Source of the DNA: an uncultured Rhodospirillaceae bacterium
GTDB taxonomy: Bacteria > Pseudomonadota > Alphaproteobacteria > UBA11136
DNA: 64,000 nt
Direction: 5' to 3'
Assembly (NCBI GenBank): GCA_964482135.1
Contig: CAYZWF010000001.1
Span: 11,362 to 75,361 of the forward strand
Part shown: one piece after another, positions 6,424 through 45,941 of the stretch
Numbering within the stretch: position 1 is the stretch's first letter
Layout of the letters: each line of letters opens with the position of its first letter
The notes under the pieces: model-generated
What the model saw: the letters and a program-made list of their open reading frames with translations, nothing else
The model's database searches: none
What the model was told of the DNA's origin: nothing
Program-made: the position numbers and the translations under genes

Positions 6424-6509
6424 GGGCCAGGGTACGTCGGCCCCAAAAAAGGCGGCGCTGGCAAAACCAACAGCGCCGAGCTTGGGAAGGGCCAGGGTAC
6501 GTCGGCCCC
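6424..6509. repeat. Two copies of a REP-like dispersed element (GGGCCAGGGTACGTCGGCCCC followed by an A-run), in reverse orientation
   Basis: An identical 21-mer occurs at 6424-6444 and 6489-6509. It is the same family as the elements at 8927, 9853-10253, 14326 and 29655-29720. Confidence 0.8.
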
Positions 6510-6516
6510 GAAAAGA

Positions 6517-8001
6517 TTGTTGCGGGAGACCCTGTTGTCACCATCCTCCACCACGCAGGCACACGCTTGCGCTCCGGAAAACGAACAATGGTCGGCGCGC
6601 TTCATCGCACCGGAAAACCTGCCCGGTAAGCTTGCCGACTCTTTCGACCTGCTGCAACTGCACCGCTTGAACGGGGCGCGCTATCCCCACTTTCTGGAAT
6701 CAGCGGCGCGGGGCGGGGTCCAGGCCCGCTTCGACATCCTCTTCGCCTTTCCCGGCGACACCCTGACCCTTACAAGCGACGGCCTCCTCACCGGCGCCGA
6801 CCACATAGAACGCAAGCGCGACAAGGGCTTTCTCTCCACCTTCGACCGCTGGTGGGGACAGGCCATGTTCCCGGCTCCGGTAACCATGGAAATCGGCAGC
6901 GTGCCGCCCTTTCACGGCGGCTGGTTCCTCTATCTGGGATACGAGCTGGCGCGCGAGATCGAACCGACGCTGGACTTTCCCTCGGCACCCGGCGACTTCC
7001 CCATTGCCTTCGCCACCCGCTTCCCGGCGGCCGTCATCCGCGACCATGAAAGCGGCGAAGTAACCCTGGTGGCCGAAACCGGCTGCGACGATCTGCTCGA
7101 CAAAATGGAGGCCGACCTCGCTGCCCTTGCGCAATCGCCGCCGCCGCCCTTCACCGATACCCAATGCCTCGAAGGCGATCTCGACGAAGACCCGCCGGAC
7201 CAGCATCTTGAAAATCTGCGCCACTGTATCGACTATATTTATGCCGGCGACGTGTTCCAGGTGAACCTGTCGCGGGCCTGGCGCGGCCGGCTCACCCGGG
7301 ACATCTCCCACGCCCACCTCTATGACCGGCTGCGCGGCTGTAATCCCGCGCCCTTTGCCGGGCTTGTGACGCGGGGCGATGACGCCATCATCAGCTCCTC
7401 GCCGGAACGGCTGGTGGAAGTGCGCGGGCGTATCATCCAGACCCGCCCCATCGCCGGCACCCGGCCGCGCGGGTCGAGCGGCATCACCGATGTGGCCTTG
7501 TCCGAGGAGCTTCTCGCCCATCCCAAGGAGCGGGCCGAACACATCATGCTGGTGGACCTCGAGCGCAACGATATTTCCCGGGTCTGCAAGCCGGGCAGCG
7601 TGCGCGTGGACGAAATGATGGTGGTGGAATCCTACGCCCATGTGCATCACATCGTCTCCAACGTGCGCGGCGAACTGGCCCGCGCGGTGGCCCCCGGCGA
7701 GGTGGTGCGCGCGGTCTTTCCCGGCGGCACTATCACCGGCTGTCCCAAGGTGCGCTGTATGGAAATCCTCGCTGAACTGGAAGGCGTGGGGCGCGGCCCC
7801 TATACCGGCTCCATGGGCTATGTGAACCGCGACGGCAGCCTCGACCTCAATATCCTGATCCGCACCATGCTGCGCGAGGGCGATGCGGTTTGCCTGCGTG
7901 CCGGCGGCGGCATCGTCGCCGATTCCGATCCTGAAAAGGAACTGGAGGAAACCCGCGACAAGGCCAAAGGCGTGGTCCGCGCCCTCACCGAGGGAGGGTG
8001 A
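6517..8001 (+). CDS. pabB: aminodeoxychorismate synthase component I (anthranilate synthase component I family)
   Basis: Chorismate-binding enzyme motifs (PIAGTRPRG, HIMLVDLERNDI, FPGGTITGCPKVRCMEIL, GSMGY). Assigned as pabB rather than trpE because a class-IV aminotransferase (pabC) follows immediately downstream. Confidence 0.75.
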   Translation: MLRETLLSPSSTTQAHACAPENEQWSARFIAPENLPGKLADSFDLLQLHRLNGARYPHFLESAARGGVQARFDILFAFPGDTLTLTSDGLLTGADHIERKRDKGFLSTFDRWWGQAMFPAPVTMEIGSVPPFHGGWFLYLGYELAREIEPTLDFPSAPGDFPIAFATRFPAAVIRDHESGEVTLVAETGCDDLLDKMEADLAALAQSPPPPFTDTQCLEGDLDEDPPDQHLENLRHCIDYIYAGDVFQVNLSRAWRGRLTRDISHAHLYDRLRGCNPAPFAGLVTRGDDAIISSSPERLVEVRGRIIQTRPIAGTRPRGSSGITDVALSEELLAHPKERAEHIMLVDLERNDISRVCKPGSVRVDEMMVVESYAHVHHIVSNVRGELARAVAPGEVVRAVFPGGTITGCPKVRCMEILAELEGVGRGPYTGSMGYVNRDGSLDLNILIRTMLREGDAVCLRAGGGIVADSDPEKELEETRDKAKGVVRALTEGG

Positions 8002-8005
8002 GCCC

Positions 8006-8908
8006 ATGGGCGGCGGCGAATTTTCCTTCCAGTATCAACCCGGCACGGACCGGCCCATTTCTCCCCTCTACGTCAACGGCGAGGCCCGGGACACGCTGCC
8101 GGTCTCCGACCGCGGCCTGGCGTACGGCGACGGCCTGTTCGAGACCATCGCCGTGCGCGAGGGCAAACCCGAATTCTGGGGCCGTCACCTGGCCCGTCTG
8201 CGCGAGGGCTGTGAGCGTCTTCGTATTGTTGAACCGGATATGGGAGAATTGTCCCGCGAGTCGCAACTCCTCCTCAACGGCCAGCGCACCAGCCATGGCG
8301 TGGAACAGGGAATCTTGAAGATTATCATTACCCGGGGGTCGGGCGGGCGCGGCTACCGTGCGCCGGAAGATCCTCACCCCACCCGCATCGTTGCCTTTCA
8401 TCCCTGGCCCGACATTCCCGAAACCCATACCTCGGAGGGCGTCAAGATACGGCGCTGTGACCTACGACTTGGTCACCAACCGGCCTTGGCCGGGATCAAG
8501 CATCTCAACCGGCTCGAAAACGTGCTGGCGCGGGCCGAATGGGACGACCCGGAAATCGCCGAGGGCCTGCTCTGCGATGGCGAGGGAAACGTCATCGAGG
8601 GCACCATGAGCAATCTCTTTATGGAACGCGAGGGGGTTCTCTCAACGCCGGACCTCTCGCGTTGCGGCGTGGCCGGGATCATCCGCGCCGTGGTCATGGA
8701 AGAGGCAGGCTCACAGGGGCTTTCCGTGCAGGTGGGCGATATTCGTTACGAAGACGTAATGACAGCAGACGCCCTCTTCCTCACCAACAGCGTCATGGGT
8801 ATCTGGCCGGTGCGCGAACTCGACGGCCACGCCGCCCTCATCAGCCCCACCACCCGCGCGCTGATGGAACGGCTCGAAACCCGTCGCCGCAACCACCGCG
8901 AAGAATAA
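8006..8908 (+). CDS. pabC: aminodeoxychorismate lyase (class IV aminotransferase)
   Basis: PLP fold-type IV pattern (GDGLFETIAV, ...GIKHLNRLENVLA..., EGTMSNLF). The ATG at 8006 sits 5 nt after the pabB stop, so the ORF-track start at 7883 is an extension. Confidence 0.75.
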   Translation: MGGGEFSFQYQPGTDRPISPLYVNGEARDTLPVSDRGLAYGDGLFETIAVREGKPEFWGRHLARLREGCERLRIVEPDMGELSRESQLLLNGQRTSHGVEQGILKIIITRGSGGRGYRAPEDPHPTRIVAFHPWPDIPETHTSEGVKIRRCDLRLGHQPALAGIKHLNRLENVLARAEWDDPEIAEGLLCDGEGNVIEGTMSNLFMEREGVLSTPDLSRCGVAGIIRAVVMEEAGSQGLSVQVGDIRYEDVMTADALFLTNSVMGIWPVRELDGHAALISPTTRALMERLETRRRNHREE

Positions 8909-8926
8909 CCGCCCTCTTTTTTCAGG

Positions 8927-8948
8927 TCCGCAGACTCCGACGTACCTG
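8927..8948. repeat. REP-like element, variant (GGTCCGCAGACTCCGACGTACCTG preceded by a T-run)
   Basis: Matches the longer T-run + GGGGCCGCAGTCTCTGACGTACC family seen at 10003 and 14326. It is followed by an imperfect hairpin at 8947-8980. The element lies between the convergent pabC gene and the peptide array. Confidence 0.6.
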
Positions 8949-9056
8949 TCTCCCAAAGCTGCGAAGCAGCGAAGGGAGACCTTGGGCCTTAAAACAAAAA
9001 ATCCCGCGAGGTGATTCCCCGCGAGGTTTTTGTTAATTCCTGACGCTGGGTCAGGT

Positions 9057-9188
9057 CTATCCAGGCTGGTTGGAGTTAAAGCAATAGTACATAGTTGCTT
9101 GCATGTTCCCGTCAGCCCGGTCCAGGGCTTCGTCGGAAAGCTCGGCCAGGTCTTCGCTCTCGGGTTTTTTCACATCAGTCTTGGGCAT
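9057..9188 (-). CDS. putative RiPP/bacteriocin-like precursor peptide, copy 1 (43 aa): MPKTDVKKPESEDLAELSDEALDRADGNMQATMYYCFNSNQPG
   Basis: The ATG at 9188 is preceded by an AAAGGAAAACCCC SD-like sequence. The conserved 24-aa leader is shared with three paralogues, the C-terminus is unique, and there is a clean stop at 9057-9059. It is absent from the ORF track because it is under 60 aa. Confidence 0.6.
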   Translation of the reverse strand: MPKTDVKKPESEDLAELSDEALDRADGNMQATMYYCFNSNQPG

Positions 9189-9210
9189 GGGGTTTTCCTT
9201 TTAGTGCCAC

Positions 9211-9345
9211 TTACTCAGCCGGTGACGTAGTCCCGCAGTGGCTGGTATTCGTGCATACCTTCGTGATCTCTAAACGGTCCAGGACCTCGTCGCTGAGTTC
9301 AGCCACATCCTCGCTCTCGATTTTTTTCACATCTGTTTTGGGTAT
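9211..9345 (-). CDS. precursor-peptide paralogue, copy 2 (44 aa if translated): [I]PKTDVKKIESEDVAELSDEVLDRLEITKVCTNTSHCGTTSPAE; the start codon is ATA, so it may be a pseudogene
   Basis: The frame is conserved behind an AAAGGGAGGAACCC SD sequence, but the initiator position reads ATA. An in-frame TAA lies 5 codons upstream, so no alternative ATG exists. Confidence 0.4.
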   Translation of the reverse strand: MPKTDVKKIESEDVAELSDEVLDRLEITKVCTNTSHCGTTSPAE

Positions 9346-9367
9346 GGGTTCCTCCCTTTAATGGGGG

Positions 9368-9508
9368 TCAGTCAGCCGGAGCACTATTAGCGCAGGCGCC
9401 ACTGTTGCTGTTGCACCATTGTAAGTTCTCGGCGGTCCGGTCCAGAGCCTCGTCGGCAAGTTCAGCCACATCCTCGCTCTCGATTTTTTTAACGTCTGTC
9501 TTGGGCAT
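9368..9508 (-). CDS. precursor-peptide paralogue, copy 3 (46 aa): MPKTDVKKIESEDVAELADEALDRTAENLQWCNSNSGACANSAPAD
   Basis: The ATG at 9508 is preceded by AAAGGGAGAACCTC. It carries the conserved leader, and the stop is TGA at 9368-9370. Confidence 0.6.
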   Translation of the reverse strand: MPKTDVKKIESEDVAELADEALDRTAENLQWCNSNSGACANSAPAD

Positions 9509-9571
9509 GAGGTTCTCCCTTTAGTGGCGGCTATTCAGCCGGGGACAGCTACGCGCAGCAGCCGACACAGC

Positions 9572-9718
9572 CTATGTTATACACGAGGACGAGGACGCGC
9601 ATCCGCCAACGCTGGCGCATACGATGTACACCTGCGCATCCGAAGTCCGGTCCAGGGCCTCGTCACTGAGTTCGGCCAAGTCTTCGCTCTCGGGTTTTTT
9701 CACATCTGTTTTGGGCAT
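9572..9718 (-). CDS. precursor-peptide paralogue, copy 4 (48 aa): MPKTDVKKPESEDLAELSDEALDRTSDAQVYIVCASVGGCASSSSCIT
   Basis: The ATG at 9718 is preceded by GGGGAGAAAACT. It forms the C-terminal part of ORF-track entry 9572..9904, whose upstream extension crosses non-coding repeat DNA. The core has 3 Cys and a run of Ser. Confidence 0.6.
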   Translation of the reverse strand: MPKTDVKKPESEDLAELSDEALDRTSDAQVYIVCASVGGCASSSSCIT

Positions 9719-9852
9719 AGTTTTCTCCCCGAAAGGTAGAATGAATGTAACGACACACCCATGGGGTTCTCCCCGAAAAGTAGAATGAGTGTAACGACGC
9801 ACCCATCCTAGGCGGAGTCGCCTTCGCGGTGCAAGAAAGCTCTCTTTTTTTA

Positions 9853-10253
9853 GGCCCGACGTACCCTGGTTTAGGGCCGACGTACCCTGGCCCTTGACTC
9901 CCACCCCTCTTTCATGCTAGGAATATTTTCTTAGCTCTTTGACATGATAAAGACGTTTCCCTACCGCGCGGCGGCGCGGCCGGTTGCGCCCATCCTCTTT
10001 TTGGGACCGCAGTCTCTAATTTACCCTGGCCCTTACCGGAGCGATGCTGCGCTGCGGCAGCCCATGTGTACAAATGATGACAAATGTTAACATTTTGGAG
10101 GCCCTGAGGGCATAAATTGTTTGAAATCAAAGACTTGGGCGTAAAAGGATGGGGGTAGTGGGGCGAACAACCCCGGTTTAGGGCTCTTTTTTCGGGGCCG
10201 CCGCACCTGACGTACCCTAGGCTTTTTTTATGGGGCCGACGTACCCTGGCCCC
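9853..10253. repeat. Cluster of at least five REP-like elements (T-run + GG(G)GCCGACGTACCCTGG(CCC), or longer variants with a CAGTCTCT insert)
   Basis: Copies lie at 9853-9869, 9874-9893, 10003-10032 (GGGACCGCAGTCTCTAATTTACCCTGGCCC), 10194-10221 and 10232-10253. Each is preceded by 5-9 T residues. Confidence 0.8.
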
Positions 10254-10264
10254 TGGCCCTAAAC

Positions 10265-11230
10265 TCAGCGCTGGTTTTCCAGCGCTTCCAGATACTCCTC
10301 CAGCGCCGCGCGGCTTTCGGACTCTTGCGGCGTCAGGGCCAGCAAGCGCTGCCACAACTCGGATGCCTTGTCACGGTTGCCGGACTGGGCCTCGGCCAGC
10401 CCCACCATCCACAGGGCCTCTTCGTGTTCGGGCATGACCGCCAACAGACGTTCGTAATACCGGGCCGCCTCGGGCGGGACCAGGGGCACGGCTTCACCGA
10501 GGGACATGTCCTTCTCCGCCTCTTCTTCTTGCGCCAGCACGATTTCGATCCGGGCCAAGGCGAGGAGCAGGCCGGGATCGTTGGGGAAATGTTCGAGACC
10601 CTTCCGTAATGCCCCATAGGCCTCGCCGGGACGCTCCAGAACCAGATAGGACTGGGCCAGCATCCGCCACCCTTCCAGGTTTTCGGGTTCCTGCTCCAGC
10701 CTCGCGGCCAGTCTTTCCACCATGGCGGAAATATCCGCTTCGGAAATGTCCCCAGGCGACATATCAGGAGCTTCCACCTCCTGGCCCTGTTCGCCGCGGG
10801 AATCGAAGGGCTGACCGGGCAGTCCCGGAAACCCCAGGAAAAGATAAAGGCCCAGCGACAGCGCCGGAATCAATACCATCAGCGCCACCAGACTGCGCCG
10901 CCGCAGCCCCGGCGCGAAGGCCGCCACTTGCGGCGCCTGGTCCAACTCGCGGTCGGCGGCCAGCAATCTGCGCTCTATCTCGAGCCGCGCCGGCGTGGCT
11001 TCGGCCTCCGTCAAGACGCCGCGCGCCAGGTCCGCCTCAAGCTCGTGCAACTGGTCGCCATAGACGGCGAGATCATGGCCACCGCGCCCGCGCTCCGTCT
11101 CTTCTTCTCCTTTACCACCGTCGAAGGCGAGCCAGTCCCGGGTGCCAAGCAACAGCGCCACCGCGCCTCCGGCCATCAGGGCAATCAGCACCCAGAACAA
11201 CAGATCAGCCGTCACGGTCTCGCCGCTCAT
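10265..11230 (-). CDS. ccmI: cytochrome c-type biogenesis protein CcmI (CycH), TPR-containing
   Basis: N-terminal TM helix followed by TPR-like repeats. It is the last gene of the ccm operon and overlaps the ccmH stop. Confidence 0.65.
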   Translation of the reverse strand: MSGETVTADLLFWVLIALMAGGAVALLLGTRDWLAFDGGKGEEETERGRGGHDLAVYGDQLHELEADLARGVLTEAEATPARLEIERRLLAADRELDQAPQVAAFAPGLRRRSLVALMVLIPALSLGLYLFLGFPGLPGQPFDSRGEQGQEVEAPDMSPGDISEADISAMVERLAARLEQEPENLEGWRMLAQSYLVLERPGEAYGALRKGLEHFPNDPGLLLALARIEIVLAQEEEAEKDMSLGEAVPLVPPEAARYYERLLAVMPEHEEALWMVGLAEAQSGNRDKASELWQRLLALTPQESESRAALEEYLEALENQR

Positions 11231-21795: not shown

Positions 21796-22470
21796 CTAAT
21801 CGCCGCGCACTTCCTCCACCATATCGGCGAGACGGTGAATGTCCGGAATAACCAGGGCATTTCGACCGCGCTTGACCACATCATCCCGGGCCAGATCGCT
21901 CAACACGCGGGCCACGGTTTCGCGGGTGGTGCTGACCCGGCTGGCGATCTCGCTGTGGTGGGGGATGGGGCGGATTTCGGCGCTGTTGTCGGGCTTCAGG
22001 CTGGTCATGGCCTGGCGCAGAAGTTCCGCGTGGATGCGGTTGTTGGCGCCTAATGTGCTGAGGTCCATGATGCGTTCGCTGGCCTGGCGCACCATATAGG
22101 TCAGCCGCTTCATCACCCTGAGTGCTGCCGCGGGATGATCGTGCAGGAACTCGGCAAAGGCGGTGGGCCCAAGAACGGCCACCGTGGCTTGGGTCTGGGC
22201 GATGACATTGGCGGAGCGGGGTCCGTCATCAATGGCTGCCAGTTCGCCGAAATAGTCCCCCGGCCCAAGGTCGTCAAAGGCAATTTCGCGCCCCGACAGA
22301 GAGTAATTCACGATACGCACCTGTCCCTCGACGAGGAAATAAACGTCTCGGTTTTCATCATGGCGGTCGATGATCTGTTCGCCCTCGCCAAAGGTGCGCC
22401 AGGAGCAGCGCTTTTCCAGGGCCGCTCGCTGGGATTTCTTGATCCCCTTCACAAGCGAGACGTTTTCCAG
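21796..22470 (-). CDS. Crp/Fnr-family transcriptional regulator (no N-terminal Cys cluster, so Crp/FixK-type)
   Basis: cNMP-binding domain (GDYFGELAAIDDGPRSANV) and a C-terminal HTH (HSEIASRVSTTRETVARVLSDL). The start is uncertain; a GTG near 22470 gives about 225 aa. The 318-aa ORF-track version is an extension. Confidence 0.7.
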   Translation of the reverse strand: MENVSLVKGIKKSQRAALEKRCSWRTFGEGEQIIDRHDENRDVYFLVEGQVRIVNYSLSGREIAFDDLGPGDYFGELAAIDDGPRSANVIAQTQATVAVLGPTAFAEFLHDHPAAALRVMKRLTYMVRQASERIMDLSTLGANNRIHAELLRQAMTSLKPDNSAEIRPIPHHSEIASRVSTTRETVARVLSDLARDDVVKRGRNALVIPDIHRLADMVEEVRGD

Positions 22471-22932
22471 GGAGTTTGAAGCGTTTTCGGGCAAGGGGTA
22501 TCTCCCAACCGGGGTGGATATTCCGTGGGTGCAACACAAAAACCTACGGAAAGGGGGTTTGTCCGGCAAGGAAAAGTTTCCCGATTTGCGGGAAGGGGCC
22601 TGAGGAAAGTCGCGCTTCCGGCCCGCCACTATCCCCCGTCTTCTGTGGTGACGGGCTTTGGGCGGCATCTGGCCGATGGAAATGAAAACTCCGGACGGAC
22701 CCGCCATACCTCTGGGCATAAGCCCATAATTGCCTTGTGGTTGCGGCCACATGCCGGTTGTGATAGGCAGAGCCTCGCACCGGAAATACGGCTTCGATGG
22801 CTTCCCCTTTCCGATTGAAACAGCGCTTGGAATCCGGGACCGGAAGCCGAATCTTTAAAAAATGGAACAGGCAGGTTCACTGTAAGCCCGGCCAAGACTT
22901 GGAGCCGGACAGGGAAATGTGAAGAGAAAAAA

Positions 22933-29654: not shown

Positions 29655-29720
29655 AGGCCCAATGTACCCTGGACCTTTTTGAGGCCCGACGTATTTTATG
29701 GCGCCGACGTACCCTGGCGC
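29655..29720. repeat. Three REP-like elements (GAGGCCCAATGTACCCTGGACC, GAGGCCCGACGTATTTT, GGCGCCGACGTACCCTGGCGC), each after a T-run
   Basis: Same family as the 9853-10253 elements. They lie inside the annotated 5' end of the gltB ORF, which argues the real start is downstream. Confidence 0.7.
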
Positions 29721-40655: not shown

Positions 40656-40740
40656 GGCGCACTACTCTCTTTAATTCCAGCCACGTGTTAGCATATATAC
40701 AGCTATCAAACATGATCCGGCAGAGGGGAAAGGCAAGATT

Positions 40741-41385
40741 ATGACGGAAAAAGAGCGCTTGATCGTGGGCATCAGCGGCGCGTCGGGTGTGGTTTACGGC
40801 ATCCGGCTGCTGGAGTTGTTGCGCGATTTGCCGGTGGAAACCCATCTTGTGATGACCCGCCCGGCCGAACTGGTTCTTGCCACCGAAAGCGATCTGGCGC
40901 CAAAGGACGTGCGCGACCTGGCCGATGTCGTCCACCCCATCGGCAATATGGGCGCGGTGATTTCAAGCGGATCATTCCGCACCAGGGGCATGGTGGTGGC
41001 TCCCTGTTCCATGAAGTCGTTGGCGGAAATCGCCACCGGCATGGGCTCGACCCTGTTGGCTCGCGCCGCCGATGTGACTCTGAAAGAACGCCGGAGGCTG
41101 GTGCTCATGGTGCGCGAAACCCCGCTGCATAGCGGCCATCTGCGCAACATGCTCAATGTGTCTGATATGGGTGCGGTAATTGCCCCGCCGGTGCCGGCGT
41201 TCTACGCGAAGCCGGAATCCCTGGACCAGATGGTGGACCACACGCTGGGCCGTACCCTCGACCTGTTTGGCCTGGAAAGCGGTACCGTGCGGAGATGGGG
41301 AGAAGAGGGGCCTGAAACGGGCCCCGATTTGGATCGGAATGCTGAGGCAGAGCCGGTTAGGCTGGGAAAAAAAACCGGCCTTTGA
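40741..41385 (+). CDS. ubiX: flavin prenyltransferase UbiX (Pad1 family)
   Basis: LIVGISGASGVVYGIRLLE...MVVAPCSMKSLAEIATG...LVLMVRETPLH, the canonical UbiX flavoprotein motifs. Confidence 0.85.
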   Translation: MTEKERLIVGISGASGVVYGIRLLELLRDLPVETHLVMTRPAELVLATESDLAPKDVRDLADVVHPIGNMGAVISSGSFRTRGMVVAPCSMKSLAEIATGMGSTLLARAADVTLKERRRLVLMVRETPLHSGHLRNMLNVSDMGAVIAPPVPAFYAKPESLDQMVDHTLGRTLDLFGLESGTVRRWGEEGPETGPDLDRNAEAEPVRLGKKTGL

Positions 41386-42099: not shown

Positions 42100-42801
42100 C
42101 TATTCAAAGCCTTCCACGGGCAGAGGCAGGTCACTCTTCCAGGCTTCCAGCCGCTGTATATAGGGCGGCTCTCCATTATCCAGAACCCATGAATCAACGG
42201 CGAAACGTTTGCCGCTGACCGTTTCCTCGATCTGTGCGCCCCAGTGCGGTTCGAACAGACGGGGTGTCCGAAAAGCGGCATCGAGTACGCGATGCCATGC
42301 CAAGAGGCCCCGTTGTTCAAGGAGGATGAGAAAACGCGTGGTGTTCCGGGATTCATCCACGCAATCCATCTGCCCTTCGATATCGCCGTAATGGCGGGGG
42401 GGAATCAGCGATAACGAGGAGGTTCTGACCTGATTGTGTGGCTGGGATGAGGGCGCGAAGCTGTTGGGATTACGCCCCTTGTCACGATGAACGGATGTCT
42501 GTTTCCCGGCAATACGCTCAAACAGGGCGACGGCCTCCCGGATTTGTTCGCGCTCAATACGCGAGGTCTTGGCCGTGGGCTCGAACAGGCGCGTGATATC
42601 AAGAAGTTGTTCCCGCGAAAGTGTGACGGTGCTTTGCGCCTTGCAGTCCAAGTTGTGGCAGATGGTGATGGTGTGCGTGTTTGCAGCAGGGGGAACCCGA
42701 ACCTCTTCACGCGGTGTGACGCGACCGTTCGCCGATGGGCCAAGAAAAAAACTGGTAAACAGAATGAACGTCGCCAGGTGATAGGAAAGAAGCTTCATCA
42801 T
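42100..42801 (-). CDS. hypothetical secreted/lipoprotein, paralogue of 20210..20854
   Basis: Signal peptide MMKLLSYHLATFILFTSFFLG. It shares CxNLDC, DCVDESRNTT and FAVDSWVLDNG motifs with the 20210 ORF. Confidence 0.5.
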   Translation of the reverse strand: MMKLLSYHLATFILFTSFFLGPSANGRVTPREEVRVPPAANTHTITICHNLDCKAQSTVTLSREQLLDITRLFEPTAKTSRIEREQIREAVALFERIAGKQTSVHRDKGRNPNSFAPSSQPHNQVRTSSLSLIPPRHYGDIEGQMDCVDESRNTTRFLILLEQRGLLAWHRVLDAAFRTPRLFEPHWGAQIEETVSGKRFAVDSWVLDNGEPPYIQRLEAWKSDLPLPVEGFE

Positions 42802-42943
42802 GGACTGTTTCAAGACGCCTGTTGACAAATCTGGTAGAACAATCCGGGGCAAAGGAATCATAGCACTTCATTTTTTGTTAAGGAATCCCCTGCAAGGCTC
42901 CTTTTTCAGTCGGTCCTTATCCTGAGGTTCCTGCCGTTCACGG

Positions 42944-43306
42944 ATGAAGTGGGGCGGCAAAACGGGGGAAAGCGCTGTGGCGACGGAAATCTACATCTGT
43001 AAGGAAGGCCAAAGCCTTAAACAGGGGAAGATCGAATACGGCGAGATCGACTCTAAGGATGAAGCCCAGTCCGATGCTGTGGCGCGCTGTAAGCGGGACC
43101 GGAGCATCGCCAAAATCGCCTATTACAGCGTCAACGAAAACGGCGATTTCCGCATTTTCTTCACCTATAACAATCCCAACCCAGCCTCGGAAAAAAAGAC
43201 TCCGAAACCGGACGGAGAAGCCGCGCCCAAGAAAAAGAAGAAGGCAAAGCCCAAGAAGAAAAAGAAAAAATCCCTGCTGTCCCGGCTCCTTTCCCCATTC
43301 TCCTGA
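42944..43306 (+). CDS. hypothetical protein with poly-Lys C-terminal tail
   Basis: 120 aa. The C-terminal PKKKKKAKPKKKKKKSLLSRLL is encoded by an A-rich tract. Coding status is uncertain. Confidence 0.3.
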   Translation: MKWGGKTGESAVATEIYICKEGQSLKQGKIEYGEIDSKDEAQSDAVARCKRDRSIAKIAYYSVNENGDFRIFFTYNNPNPASEKKTPKPDGEAAPKKKKKAKPKKKKKKSLLSRLLSPFS

Positions 43307-43358
43307 GCGCCCCCCAGTGATTCTAAAGGACGCCCCGGCTCATCAGTCCTGAGCCGTT

Positions 43359-44498
43359 CTAGCCGCCAAGCGGCAATGTGTAGACGGGCTGGGTGCTCTG
43401 CACGTCGCCCGATTGCAGGGCGAAAAGATGATGGAGAAGGGAAAAGGTGGTTTTCGATGTCAGGTCGGAATCGGCGATATAAAACCAATGTCCCCGATAT
43501 TCCACGGATACGGCAGCACGGTCCGGCTGGGCGGCTTGGGAGCGCACCCGGAGCAGACCGCCCGTGACCTGATCCCAGTCAAAGACCTCGCCATCGGCGG
43601 TGCGGGTGACCGTGACCCTTCCCGCCTCGATATCTTCGGGCGGCACCTTCACACCCTGTGAGAGGTAATAGAGAACTCCCATGAGAGAGCGGGTCTGGAT
43701 GCCGATACGATCATGCCTGCCGGAAATATAGTTGGGAGTTACCACGTAAAAAGGTGCATCCGGTGAAAGCTCAAGGAGCTTCTGAAGCTCCCGGGTCTCG
43801 GTAGTGGTTTCTCCCTTCGCGGTAAGGCGCATGACGATGCGCGAGGAGCCCCGGTGTTCCACCGCCCCGGGGGAAGGATGTTCGAGCCTGATATTCAGGC
43901 CGTCTTTGACCTGGAGGTTTCGCATCAGATCAGTCAGGCGCTGGAATGTCTTGTATTCGGGTGCGGTGGCCGGCGTTGGCCCCGCCGCCCGCGGCGCATT
44001 CCTGATTTTATTGACCCGCTGTGCGCACATCTCGAACACACGTTCCACGCTCCACCCGGAATTATAAAGCAGCAGCAGGGTTTCCAAGGAAATAGGGGAC
44101 AGCAGCCGTTTTACGAACTGTTCCCCCTGAAGGGGTGAATAGGTGACGGTGGGGTTTTCCTCGTATTCTCCGCTGGGCCCGATCTCGAAGATGTTGGATT
44201 TGCCCCCACCATGGGTAAAGGCGCCGGCCAGCCCCGCGTTATAGGTGAACTGGGTGGCCACCGAACTGACCTCAAGGAAGAAGGGGGTGTCCCGGTATTT
44301 CAGGCGTACCAGATTAAGGAGCATCTGCTCCTCGCTGGTTTTCTGAATGGCTATATTATAGGGATTGCGATTGCCGTGAACCGTGTCCGGCCCGAAATAG
44401 GCGCATCCCGAAAGCAGGGAAACAACTGTCCCCAATAACATTCCGGTGTAAAACCGCCGTCGACTGCGATCCTTTTTTACCCGTACACCAATTTCCAT
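43359..44498 (-). CDS. hypothetical lipoprotein (about 380 aa)
   Basis: Start taken at MEIGVRVKK, followed by a TM/signal segment and an LSGC lipobox. There is no recognisable catalytic motif. The ORF-track 474-aa version is a 5' extension. Confidence 0.5.
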   Translation of the reverse strand: MEIGVRVKKDRSRRRFYTGMLLGTVVSLLSGCAYFGPDTVHGNRNPYNIAIQKTSEEQMLLNLVRLKYRDTPFFLEVSSVATQFTYNAGLAGAFTHGGGKSNIFEIGPSGEYEENPTVTYSPLQGEQFVKRLLSPISLETLLLLYNSGWSVERVFEMCAQRVNKIRNAPRAAGPTPATAPEYKTFQRLTDLMRNLQVKDGLNIRLEHPSPGAVEHRGSSRIVMRLTAKGETTTETRELQKLLELSPDAPFYVVTPNYISGRHDRIGIQTRSLMGVLYYLSQGVKVPPEDIEAGRVTVTRTADGEVFDWDQVTGGLLRVRSQAAQPDRAAVSVEYRGHWFYIADSDLTSKTTFSLLHHLFALQSGDVQSTQPVYTLPLGG

Positions 44499-44663
44499 CG
44501 CCTGCCTTTGCCCCTTTTGCCTGTCCCGAATAGAAGCCGCAAAGCCCCTCAAAGGCAAGGGGGCAGGGAAGGAATACAGACTGGAGCTTTTCCAGGTTGA
44601 CAGTGAATAGGGGCGTTCTATAGTCCCTGTTCTCAGTGTGGTTGCATAAGGAAAATCAACCCC

Positions 44664-44990
44664 ATGTCTCCCAGCCGCTATCTGGATAGGCCCAAGCGCA
44701 CTTACGAGGAAGCCGTGCGCGCAAAAGACACGTGCAACAGGGTTCGTGATGCGCGTGGTGACGGCTCCGATGAGACGGGACACGAAAGTCCCTTCTCGCG
44801 CCTCGGGGGGGCATGGCTGTCGGGTGTCGTGCTGGTGTTTGTTCTTGCAGCCCTTGCCGGATTTATTGTCCTGCCCTCTTTTATTCCCGAGGAAACCGTT
44901 ACCGCCGAGGGGATCACCACCGAGGAAATTCAGCGGTTACAGACCATCGCGCCGGCGGCGGGTCCTGGCGCTCTTCCCGATCCCAATTGA
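44664..44990 (+). CDS. hypothetical small membrane protein (108 aa)
   Basis: Single TM segment (AWLSGVVLVFVLAALAGFIVL). Its TGA stop overlaps the proposed TTG start of the downstream DUF547 gene (TTGA), suggesting translational coupling. Confidence 0.4.
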   Translation: MSPSRYLDRPKRTYEEAVRAKDTCNRVRDARGDGSDETGHESPFSRLGGAWLSGVVLVFVLAALAGFIVLPSFIPEETVTAEGITTEEIQRLQTIAPAAGPGALPDPN

Positions 44991-45880
44991 TCCCACGGGA
45001 ATTCCCCGGTCGGTGGCAGACCGGCCTCCCGGCCCTTACTTCTCTGTTTCTGTGGTTTTCCGTTTTTTTCACCGGCGTTGCCTGGGCGGCGTCCGGAGTG
45101 GAACTGTGGGAGCGTTGGGCACAATCCGACCCTGAATCCTCGGCTTCCATCACCTATGACAACTGGAACCGGTTTCTTGAAAAATACATTGTCGAATCCC
45201 CCGGCGGCATCACTCTGGTTCGTTACGGGGCCGTTACCGGCGAGGACCAGGAAAACCTTGGAAGTGAGATACACAGACTCTCGCGGGTTCCCATCAGCCG
45301 TTTTAACCGTGATCAGCAACGCGCCTTCTGGATTAACCTCTATAATGCGCTGACGGTTAAACTGATCCTGGACCACGCTCCGGTGGACAGTATCCGCGAC
45401 ATCGATATTTCACCGGGCTGGTTTTCCGACGGCCCCTGGGGGCGGAAACTGGTGACGGTGGAAGACGAGAAACTTTCCCTTGATGACATTGAACACCGTA
45501 TCCTGCGCCCCATTTGGCGCGATCCGCGCCTTCACTACGCCTTGAACTGTGCCGCGCGGGGCTGTCCCAATCTGGCGGCCATGGCCTATACGGCGGCCAA
45601 TAGCGAGTCGCTTCTGGACGCGGGTGCCCGGGCCTATGTGAACCATGACCGGGGCACCGCGTTCGTTGACGGCGCTCTGGTGGTGTCCAGTATTTATGTT
45701 TGGTACATGCCGGACTTCGGTGGTTCGGAGGGCTCTGTGATCGCCCATCTGGGGCGTTATGCCGAACCCGGACTCGCGGCAAAACTGGCAGAAGTGAGGC
45801 GTATCTACGACGACGTTTATGACTGGCGGCTTAATGATGCCGGGGGCGACGGGACAATGATGCCTCCGGTCTCTCAATGA
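44987..45880 (+). CDS. DUF547 domain secreted protein
   Basis: ITYDNWNRFLEKY...AFWINLYNALTVKLILDH...HYALNCAARGCPNL is the DUF547 pattern. There is no in-frame ATG before the predicted signal peptide (...LFLWFSVFFTGVAWA/AS), so a TTG start at 44987 is proposed. Confidence 0.55.
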   Translation: MIPREFPGRWQTGLPALTSLFLWFSVFFTGVAWAASGVELWERWAQSDPESSASITYDNWNRFLEKYIVESPGGITLVRYGAVTGEDQENLGSEIHRLSRVPISRFNRDQQRAFWINLYNALTVKLILDHAPVDSIRDIDISPGWFSDGPWGRKLVTVEDEKLSLDDIEHRILRPIWRDPRLHYALNCAARGCPNLAAMAYTAANSESLLDAGARAYVNHDRGTAFVDGALVVSSIYVWYMPDFGGSEGSVIAHLGRYAEPGLAAKLAEVRRIYDDVYDWRLNDAGGDGTMMPPVSQ

Positions 45881-45941
45881 TTTTCCTTTCTATTTCCTCC
45901 CCGCCGGAAATAGTCTTTGATGAATTAGAGGATATTGATCC

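Follow-up and report, generated by a model that had tools for sequence, protein, structure and literature searches.

The Probable Precursor Array

The stretch analysed here (the window) is 64 kb of DNA from an uncultured Rhodospirillaceae bacterium (contig CAYZWF010000001.1). Read directly, its minus strand at 9057-9718 contains four homologous small-peptide units, which the original prediction for this sequence took for an array of precursors of peptides that are made by ribosomes and modified after translation (RiPPs). A repeat search found a 128-nucleotide (nt) unit in four copies at this place, well past chance. On the same strand, upstream of the array, is ccmI (10265-11230), while pabC (7883-8908) is convergent with it. 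The units are listed below in reading order; related loci and public proteins are cited throughout by our L and P numbers.

9572-9718, minus strand: unit 4, predicted 48-residue precursor MPKTDVKKPESEDLAELSDEALDRTSDAQVYIVCASVGGCASSSSCIT
9368-9508, minus strand: unit 3, predicted 46-residue precursor with core TAENLQWCNSNSGACANSAPAD, showing the typical Q-x-C entry and an A-P-A-D tail
9211-9345, minus strand: unit 2, start-codon-defective copy with core LEITKVCTNTSHCGTTSPAE
9057-9188, minus strand: unit 1, predicted 43-residue precursor with core ADGNMQATMYYCFNSNQPG, a single Cys and a P-G ending

It had been predicted that four minus-strand open reading frames (ORFs) of 43, 44, 46 and 48 residues lie here between pabBC and the ccm genes, each with its own Shine-Dalgarno sequence, and that they share their leaders and diverge completely at their C-termini. 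The four units, their place between pabC on one side and ccmI on the other, the leader and core sequences, and a Shine-Dalgarno sequence of GGGAG/GGAGG type 6-9 nt 5′ of every unit were all found as described, and so were the reading frames of 43, 46 and 48 residues. The 44-residue frame of unit 2 was not. Its homologous start codon is ATA (Ile) at 9343-9345, not ATG, and the sole canonical start is GTG at 9328-9330, five codons in, which gives 39 residues with a shortened leader. The ATA is present in four of four independent metagenome assemblies and so is not a sequencing error. The rest of the array in these assemblies is 100% identical to the window, and their gene callers predicted only the 48-, 46- and 43-residue genes. 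Protein P0070, from other samples, has 44 residues, starts with Met and is otherwise identical to unit 2. Since the ATA occurs in four assemblies while a Met-starting allele exists elsewhere, unit 2 is a recent start-codon mutant, and the other three units (48, 46 and 43 residues) are intact. The exact protein of unit 4 was found on 24 or more metagenome contigs and that of unit 1 (P0018) on 23; unit 3 has an identical public protein, P0032.

After unit 4 comes a 63-nt spacer (9509-9571; 8887-8949 of L010, the corresponding locus of a sister species) in which a relic of the usual family ending ...L-S-P-A-E-stop remains out of frame. From this, unit 4 derives from a longer ancestor by truncation or frameshift, and both its truncated form and the spacer have been kept in the sister species. 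Another assembly of the same organism (L005) departs from the window mid-array, from about position 10281 of L005 to the end of its contig; this suggests population heterogeneity or assembly breaks within these repeated arrays. The leader had also been described as helical, a view that the AlphaFold model of the peptide does not bear out: the model is of low confidence (mean pLDDT 60) and is compatible with a peptide having no stable fold of its own.

The Peptide Family and Coding Selection

Protein searches returned 29 and then 81 strong relatives (E ≤ 1.6e-10), all of 33-57 residues and with the same leader; the other matches of the wider search were weak ones to a second subfamily that is described below. 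The family now has at least 87 distinct peptides of 38-57 residues. Its acidic leader of 24 residues reads MPKTD-x-KK-x-ESEDLAELSDEALDR, with the core motif ELSDEALDR invariant, and ends ...DR[T/A]xx[A]Q. In an alignment of 30 sequences, 12 invariant leader positions stood against a hypervariable C-terminal half.

Conservation of the leader was analyzed at codon level in 58 different gene sequences of the family, taken from the window and from loci related to it. Over the 24 leader codons, mean column entropy was 0.43 for first, 0.26 for second and 0.95 for third positions. Residues K3, D13, E16, L17, D19, E20, L22 and D23 were invariant in all 58 sequences, their third positions varying synonymously. 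Because leader variation falls mostly on third positions around invariant residues, selection has acted on protein and not on DNA or RNA. By this codon pattern the units are evidently genuine translated genes under protein-level selection.

In the cores of the 58 gene translations Cys made up 16%, Ser and Gly 13% each, Ala 11% and Pro 9%; Lys and Arg stood at about 0.5% or less each. Among the 87 distinct members, 62 have two or three Cys in the core, and an odd number is commonest (three Cys in 36). In 61 of the 83 Cys-containing members the first Cys follows the LD of the motif at a distance of 8-9 residues, typically as A-Q-x-C. Only this first position is conserved, the spacing between Cys residues ranging from 0 to 12. 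Pro occurs within the final three residues in 74/87, and 55/87 end in P-x-[D/E]. Ser and Thr together are fewer than Cys in 41/87 members, and five members have neither. All four window cores hold both Ser/Thr and Cys, with Ser/Thr enough for lanthionine formation.

None of the four units matched an NCBIfam model at E ≤ 10 or a Pfam model above threshold, and the literature, searched by motif strings, yielded nothing of relevance. Scans of metagenomes and viruses returned short contigs only, or nothing, and a plasmid search was empty. Neither Pfam and NCBIfam nor the open literature, as far as it is searchable by motif, contains the leader family, its setting in Alphaproteobacteria of oxygen minimum zones (OMZ) or the wider ELSDEALDR superfamily. 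Absence from the two databases would make the family hard to detect by model-based genome-mining tools.

Dispersed Arrays in Two Species

Among 185,579 species-representative genomes the family was found in one, that of Alphaproteobacteria bacterium BS150m-G7 (Black Sea, 150 m; GCA_016776635.1), which carries about 44 family genes at 13 loci. The window organism, seen in many ENA and JGI metagenome assemblies, has at least three loci (the window array, L023 and L024). The source samples of the carriers are from OMZ and the Black Sea redoxcline. In both species the arrays occupy many housekeeping intergenic sites.

The region between ccmI and pabC in BS150m-G7 is syntenic with the window, its flanks being 90-91% identical, and holds eight peptide genes versus four. 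Of the four window cores only that of unit 4 has an orthologue in this eight-gene array, with 95% nucleotide identity including the 63-nt spacer. A second orthologous site in both species lies between pntA and an M3-peptidase gene. The orthologue pair of L023 and L020 (...TGYAQSCASGNWTGCSPPTE) differs by four synonymous and no non-synonymous changes in the core, and by four synonymous and six non-synonymous changes in the leader. The picture we draw from these comparisons is one of fast birth and death of genes with purifying selection on the surviving cores. The array is thus not strain-specific, a question raised by the original prediction: the sister species has the orthologous site, and there are many arrays per genome.

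Putative Promoter, Upstream Region and Terminator

Reading outward from the array, we noted the following elements.

9829-9834, minus strand: putative -35 element TTGCAC, read from the sequence, with TTGCC-like hexamers at other loci
9805-9810, minus strand: putative -10 element TAGGAT, conserved in almost all family arrays 5′ of their first gene
9716-9803, minus strand: two tandem copies of a 44-nt segment of 5′ untranslated region (UTR) and Shine-Dalgarno sequence, directly 5′ of unit 4
9003-9025, minus strand: intrinsic terminator, a 9-bp stem with seven GC pairs followed by ATTTTTTGTT, ending the array and convergent with pabC

About 60 nt of homologous sequence precedes the first gene in nearly every array. 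Alignment of 19 upstream regions gave TAGGATG, GCG, TTGATTCCAT/TCATTC, GGGAGG and ATG in that order, and at other loci the TTGCC-like hexamers stand 17-18 nt (at some loci 13-14 nt) 5′ of the conserved TAGGAT. The TTGCAC/TAGGAT assignment is a putative one, and a strict sigma-70 scan did not call a promoter at the array. Inside arrays, genes are separated by spacers of about 22 nt that contain only a Shine-Dalgarno sequence, and at other loci, too, the last gene is followed by a GC hairpin and a T-run. This shared layout points to one regulon of small operons. The 44-nt duplication (repeat family D5, 86% identity; period 44 and 1.9 copies in Tandem Repeats Finder) is single in the sister species (L010). 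RNA explanations were rejected: an Rfam scan of the array region was empty, and the 5′-UTRs have no RNA fold conserved across the upstream regions.

Crp/Fnr-like paralogues with a cyclic-nucleotide-binding domain lie directly beside two BS150m-G7 arrays (L013 12220-12939; L016 10586-10942, also seen as L041 10244-10600), and the window has a Crp-like regulator at 21796-22752, 12 kb from the array. As a lead only, such proteins are possible regulators of the conserved promoter/UTR box.

Both sides of the array bear an intergenic repeat resembling repetitive extragenic palindromes (REP-like) with core CCGACGTACCCTGG (8914-8941, 9842-9890 and 10184-10249; also 6427-6505 and 29704-29717). It is genome-wide, often in tandem or paired copies of 21-28 nt, with ten matches in the window against 0.5 expected, and occurs at many loci of both species, sometimes in four to five tandem copies.

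The Wider ELSDEALDR Superfamily

A profile of ELSDEALDR, run against 1.84 billion representative sequences, matched 354 clusters at E ≤ 1e-3. Most of them form subfamily 2, with the pattern M-[S/T]-E-x-x-M-x-T-E-A-E-V-E-D-F-T-D-ELSDEALDR-A-E-G, after which comes a core that is hypervariable and rich in Cys. On marine metagenome contigs (L034-L037, L039) the arrays of this subfamily (M-[S/T]-E-..-EDFTDELSDEALDRAEG-core) adjoin a mobile element with integrase, AlpA and RepB-primase genes, and they are always followed by a convergent gene for a 117-residue protein with weak helix-turn-helix/Xre-like matches.

Other relatives are multi-cassette proteins (for example P0106, of 460 residues, P0108 and P0112), in which x-DEALDRP, 4-6 residues, a Cys/Trp core and A-P-E are repeated 3-11 times. 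Those of the two genomes described next have 256-460 residues, up to 11 cassettes and a conserved C-terminus VVRMSDYRxRxAA. One of them has five ...TVAMTGGMPFC[W/L]... cassettes, four identical and the fifth different by 2-3 residues. Multi-core RiPP precursors characteristically repeat such cassettes of recognition sequence plus core.

In two genomes of 7.4-7.6 Mb (ENA ERZ21867824) the multi-cassette precursors lie directly 3′ of two paralogous APH/EcKL-fold kinases (L044 7631-12282, L043 5829-12619); at L043 two porin genes are inserted between kinases and precursors. The best NCBIfam match of these kinases is the class V lanthionine kinase LxmK, at 21-32 bits versus a cut-off of 315. They have only distant homologues (about 30%) on actinobacterial plasmids, annotated as generic phosphotransferases, and no PDB match. 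No homologue of them was seen in the examined loci of the window organism or the sister species, and no lyase, cyclase, YcaO or radical S-adenosylmethionine (SAM) gene near the multi-cassette precursors.

Neighbouring Genes and Candidate Enzymes

Our survey for a maturase covered the 64-kb window and about 10 kb on either side of 16 loci in two species. For all 13 BS150m-G7 loci, and for two loci of 20 kb each from the window organism, it relied on precomputed Pfam matches, on further Pfam scans directed at the largest ORFs and those nearest, and on a rough search for YcaO, LanC and radical-SAM motifs.

The statement that no peptide-modifying enzyme is encoded within about 25 kb of the array holds for the whole window. 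Left of the array lie pabBC, folD, argG and rlmN, and right of it ccmABCDEFGHI and aconitase; the larger ORFs at 20-64 kb are housekeeping genes or of unknown kind. Two window proteins were tried as enzymes and rejected: the sole radical-SAM protein (198-1403) is the housekeeping RlmN, and the sole flavoprotein (40675-41382), considered as LanD/EpiD, is UbiX. The class V genes LxmK, LxmY and LxmX were not found in the window.

Neighbours at the surveyed loci are likewise housekeeping genes. In about 450 kb of family loci the only CX3CX2C proteins were RlmN orthologues. ORFs of 1054, 732 and 702 residues proved to be an ordinary GGDEF/EAL sensor, a molybdopterin oxidoreductase and CobT; DsbD and a fructosamine kinase were also ordinary, and the M16 and M3 peptidases belong to conserved housekeeping synteny.

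One enzyme gene is embedded in an array, the only such case. In BS150m-G7 (L017 8818-10550, the same as L008) a 291-residue class I SAM methyltransferase lies 62 nt 3′ of a 40-residue family member, under the family promoter, and three further peptide genes follow it. It is apparently co-transcribed and may be a tailoring enzyme, which we treat as a lead and not as evidence. The corresponding DUF188-FTR interval of the window (57.2-59.7 kb) is without this insertion.

At L014 (12651-18067) an insert between the methylmalonyl-CoA mutase and MeaB genes encodes a protein of 409 residues and a coiled-coil protein of 733 residues, neither with a Pfam match, and an ABC exporter. The insert lies 2.5-8 kb from a three-gene array, and its GC content at third codon positions (GC3) is below that of its neighbours. 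The exporter, 3.8 kb from the array, has no N-terminal C39 domain. Near the window array the only ABC proteins are CcmA and a peptide-uptake system.

Elsewhere in the window, four successive minus-strand ORFs (42100-45889; 255, 525, 159 and 159 residues) have lower GC3 than the DNA around them and no Pfam or NCBIfam match. They adjoin genes of sugar-nucleotide and polysaccharide type, and may form an island for surface polysaccharide.

Similarity to Cyanobactin Precursors

The sole family to recur among the Pfam matches was DUF5837 (PF19155), with 13 of 51 members at E ≤ 1 (best E 0.002), all 13 below threshold; other families matched two members at most. Unit 4 scored 17.4 bits (E 0.0057) and unit 1 13.2 bits against a gathering threshold of 25 bits, and units 2 and 3 had no match. 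GECCO and CHAMOIS tie DUF5837 to cyanobactin clusters and thiazole products.

The weak PDB matches included, in the same register, the PatE chains of LynD-PatE complexes (4V1T, 4V1U), with LAELSDEAL standing opposite PatE residues 26-34, a similarity that is short and not significant at database level. The LAELSEEAL of PatE is what we take to be its recognition element, recognition sequence I (RSI). Aligned by hhalign with four cyanobactin precursors, SEDLAELSDEALDR fell on SSQLAELSEEALGD (probability 70%, P 4e-5), which is a lead only.

Interpretation

We consider the region to be probably an operon-like array of ribosomal precursor peptides, with three functional genes and one start-codon mutant, which belongs to a large dispersed family and would be modified by a remotely encoded enzyme. 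The combination that marks RiPP precursors, a conserved leader and a variable core in a short ribosomal peptide, was found here. From the original prediction the translated genes and the architecture of leader and hypervariable core have stood, joined now by the multigene family and the multi-cassette relatives; the link to LanM/NHLP systems and an intact unit 2 have not.

In the mechanism that we propose, the leader would dock through ELSDEALDR with one promiscuous maturase system encoded elsewhere, on the prochlorosin logic of one enzyme and many scattered substrates. The maturase would modify the Cys at fixed distance and the other core cysteines, perhaps also Ser/Thr. A protease might then cut off the leader at about the conserved A-Q that immediately precedes the x-C entry. 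The P-x-[D/E] tail would be trimmed or used in C-terminal processing or cyclisation, and small neutral crosslinked products would be exported.

As for the chemistry, we lean, at well under an even chance, to a heterocyclisation of Cys by a leader-binding YcaO protein like that of cyanobactins or linear azole-containing peptides, because the leader motif and its spacing mimic PatE and about half of the cores are short of Ser/Thr. For the latter reason lanthionine chemistry cannot explain the whole family. Radical-SAM thioethers and a kinase-initiated (class V-like) dehydration with lanthionine formation would be close seconds, and the adjacent kinases argue for the kinase route in the multi-cassette branch.

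Several observations weigh against this reading. Neither the 64-kb window nor about 10 kb on either side of the 16 loci (at L011, L014, L015 and L018-L022 the Pfam scan covered only part of the ORFs more than about 5 kb from the arrays) yielded a maturase, leader peptidase, RiPP-recognition-element protein or dedicated exporter, and modification is unproven for this reason. No similarity to a known precursor family reaches a curated threshold, the hhalign comparison with cyanobactins is a lead only, and a leader-only profile had no match in PDB. The multi-cassette relatives have APH-fold kinases, not YcaO, beside them, which argues against the preferred chemistry in that branch at least. Finally, some copies may be decaying, as the start-defective unit 2 and the tail-less unit 4 suggest. 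The RiPP interpretation is supported but unproven.

A tentative possibility is that the ELSDEALDR-leader peptides, with their scattered arrays here, the much larger subfamily 2 in other marine bacteria and the multi-cassette DEALDRP proteins in large alphaproteobacteria-like genomes, make up a new RiPP class. Their maturase, encoded elsewhere, would then be a non-standard one (not LanM/LanB, a PatD-type YcaO or radical-SAM/SPASM), acting for example by paired APH-kinase-initiated or undescribed Cys-directed chemistry, and each genome would offer it a combinatorial library with dozens of substrates. The status of a new class would follow if the maturase proves unconventional.

If the peptides were only cleaved from their leaders and stayed unmodified or disulfide-bonded, like class II bacteriocins or pheromones, they would be secreted, and the conserved N-terminus would be only a signal for export or processing by a transporter or protease encoded elsewhere. 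This would agree with the want of a modifying enzyme near any of the 16 loci, with the ABC exporter 3.8 kb from the L014 array, and with subfamily 2 leaders, whose ...LDRAEG[A/G] ends lie at the positions of double-glycine-type signals. The window subfamily, however, has no GG or GA site, and a C39-peptidase ABC transporter was not seen at the loci examined. Odd Cys counts, which are commonest (three Cys in 36/87), fit disulfide pairing poorly, and mature products of 12-20 residues free of Lys/Arg are unusual among bacteriocins without modification. That the first Cys stands at a fixed distance from the motif suggests in addition that an enzyme is positioned on this Cys. We regard such unmodified peptides as unlikely.

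Still more improbable is that full-length, Cys-rich intracellular proteins buffer metals or redox state in sulfidic or suboxic water, their acidic N-terminus being functional or solubilising. Carriers do come from OMZ and the Black Sea redoxcline, some arrays lie by thiol-redox loci (the ccm operon here, DsbD/AhpC at L041), and neither a signal peptide nor a processing enzyme was seen. But redox genes adjoin only 2/16 loci, and most members have just two or three Cys. Metal-binding proteins keep their Cys pattern, while here only the first Cys is kept and spacing runs from 0 to 12; a hypervariable part joined to an invariant part without Cys is the reverse of a metal-site protein. The repeated recognition motifs of the multi-cassette relatives imply, moreover, that cores are excised.

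Decaying duplicates of a small gene, or a non-coding repeat with chance open frames, are hardly credible despite the lost ATG of unit 2, the lost tail and out-of-frame relic of unit 4 and the flanking REP-like repeats, being contradicted by the third-position bias and invariant residues over 58 paralogues, the conserved Shine-Dalgarno sequences, promoter and terminator, the one core with synonymous changes only between species, the empty Rfam result and the 100% identity of the array in four assemblies from different samples.

If the array reading is true, the quick turnover of cores between flanks that are 91% identical, together with strictly conserved cores, would make it practicable to follow the diversifying evolution of small molecules secreted in low-oxygen oceans. 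The invariant ELSDEALDR is also a handle: it could bring in hundreds of metagenome precursors, lead to the cognate enzyme by phylogenetic profiling and guide leader-based libraries.

Comparison with Known Systems

Cyanobactin E-precursors (the PatE/TruE family), on which the PatD/LynD heterocyclase and the subtilisin-like proteases PatA and PatG act, gave the only recurrent database similarity. LAELSDEAL resembles the LAELSEEAL of PatE and, like it, stands 7-8 residues before a Cys-containing core; the cores are hypervariable in both, short recognition sequences flank the cores of the multi-cassette relatives, and the Pro close to the C-terminal end of the core, with its short acidic tail, is reminiscent of the Pro/heterocycle plus AYDGE of cyanobactins. 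In cyanobactin biosynthesis RSI of the leader directs the heterocyclase, RSII and RSIII lie on the two sides of the core, every active cluster has genes for the A and G proteases, and the clusters are compact loci of 8-19 kb known only from cyanobacteria (PMC4663559). Here, in contrast, the N-terminal half of the PatE leader is missing, the flanks read ...xxAQ and [S/A]-P-x-[D/E] instead of RSII (G-L/V-E-A/P-S) and RSIII (AYDG), no A, D or G genes occur in the window or at any locus examined, and the genes are scattered in an alphaproteobacterial host. Cyanobactin membership was rejected on these grounds, together with the sub-threshold scores and the empty leader-only profile.

The leader had been likened to those recognised by LanM- and NHLP-type enzymes. 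NHLP/Nif11 precursors, which belong to TOMM and radical-SAM pathways, and SCIFF/ranthipeptide precursors do share a short acidic E-L-S-D-E-x-L leader segment and Cys-rich cores of about 20 residues, and SCIFF also the total length of about 45 residues. SCIFF is single-copy with a conserved core and lies beside its own radical-SAM enzyme, whereas the present peptides come in many copies with variable cores and have no radical-SAM gene beside them. The affinity to LanM/NHLP did not hold up: the units differ from all these precursors in having no NCBIfam match at E ≤ 10 and, as had been noted, no Gly-Gly cleavage site in the window leaders, and Ser/Thr is outnumbered by Cys in nearly half of the family. 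With no Nif11 Pfam match in 51 members and no TIGR03798 match for the four units, membership in LanM, NHLP or Nif11 families was rejected. Double-glycine bacteriocins are distant as well, since the window units have no GG and no C39-domain ABC transporter lies nearby.

With the class V lanthipeptide and thioamitide (LxmK) systems the superfamily shares kinases, found beside the multi-cassette relatives, and the four window cores share the presence of both Ser/Thr and Cys. It differs in that the kinase match is generic and no HopA1-type lyase or cyclase is near.

In genomic layout the closest parallel is with prochlorosins, whose ProcA precursors with Nif11-type leaders are modified by a single class II lanthipeptide synthetase, ProcM, in marine Prochlorococcus and Synechococcus. 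Unlike these, the family has leaders of 24-29 residues versus about 65, no Nif11 homology or Gly-Gly site, no LanM at the loci examined, 41/87 cores with fewer Ser/Thr than Cys, and an alphaproteobacterial host. What the two have in common is that a genome carries precursor genes by the dozen, mostly distant from enzyme genes, together with a near-invariant leader with hypervariable cores, quick gain, loss and diversification among close relatives, and a marine planktonic host. Dispersal is plain from the 13 loci of one genome; the single remote enzyme is what the analogy would add. Dispersed precursor libraries are already known from prochlorosins, and a genome-wide layout of this kind is best documented in marine picocyanobacteria; the leader family, its setting and its superfamily are new to Pfam and NCBIfam. 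If these peptides are RiPP precursors, Alphaproteobacteria of the OMZ and the Black Sea would run a prochlorosin-like strategy of one enzyme and many products.

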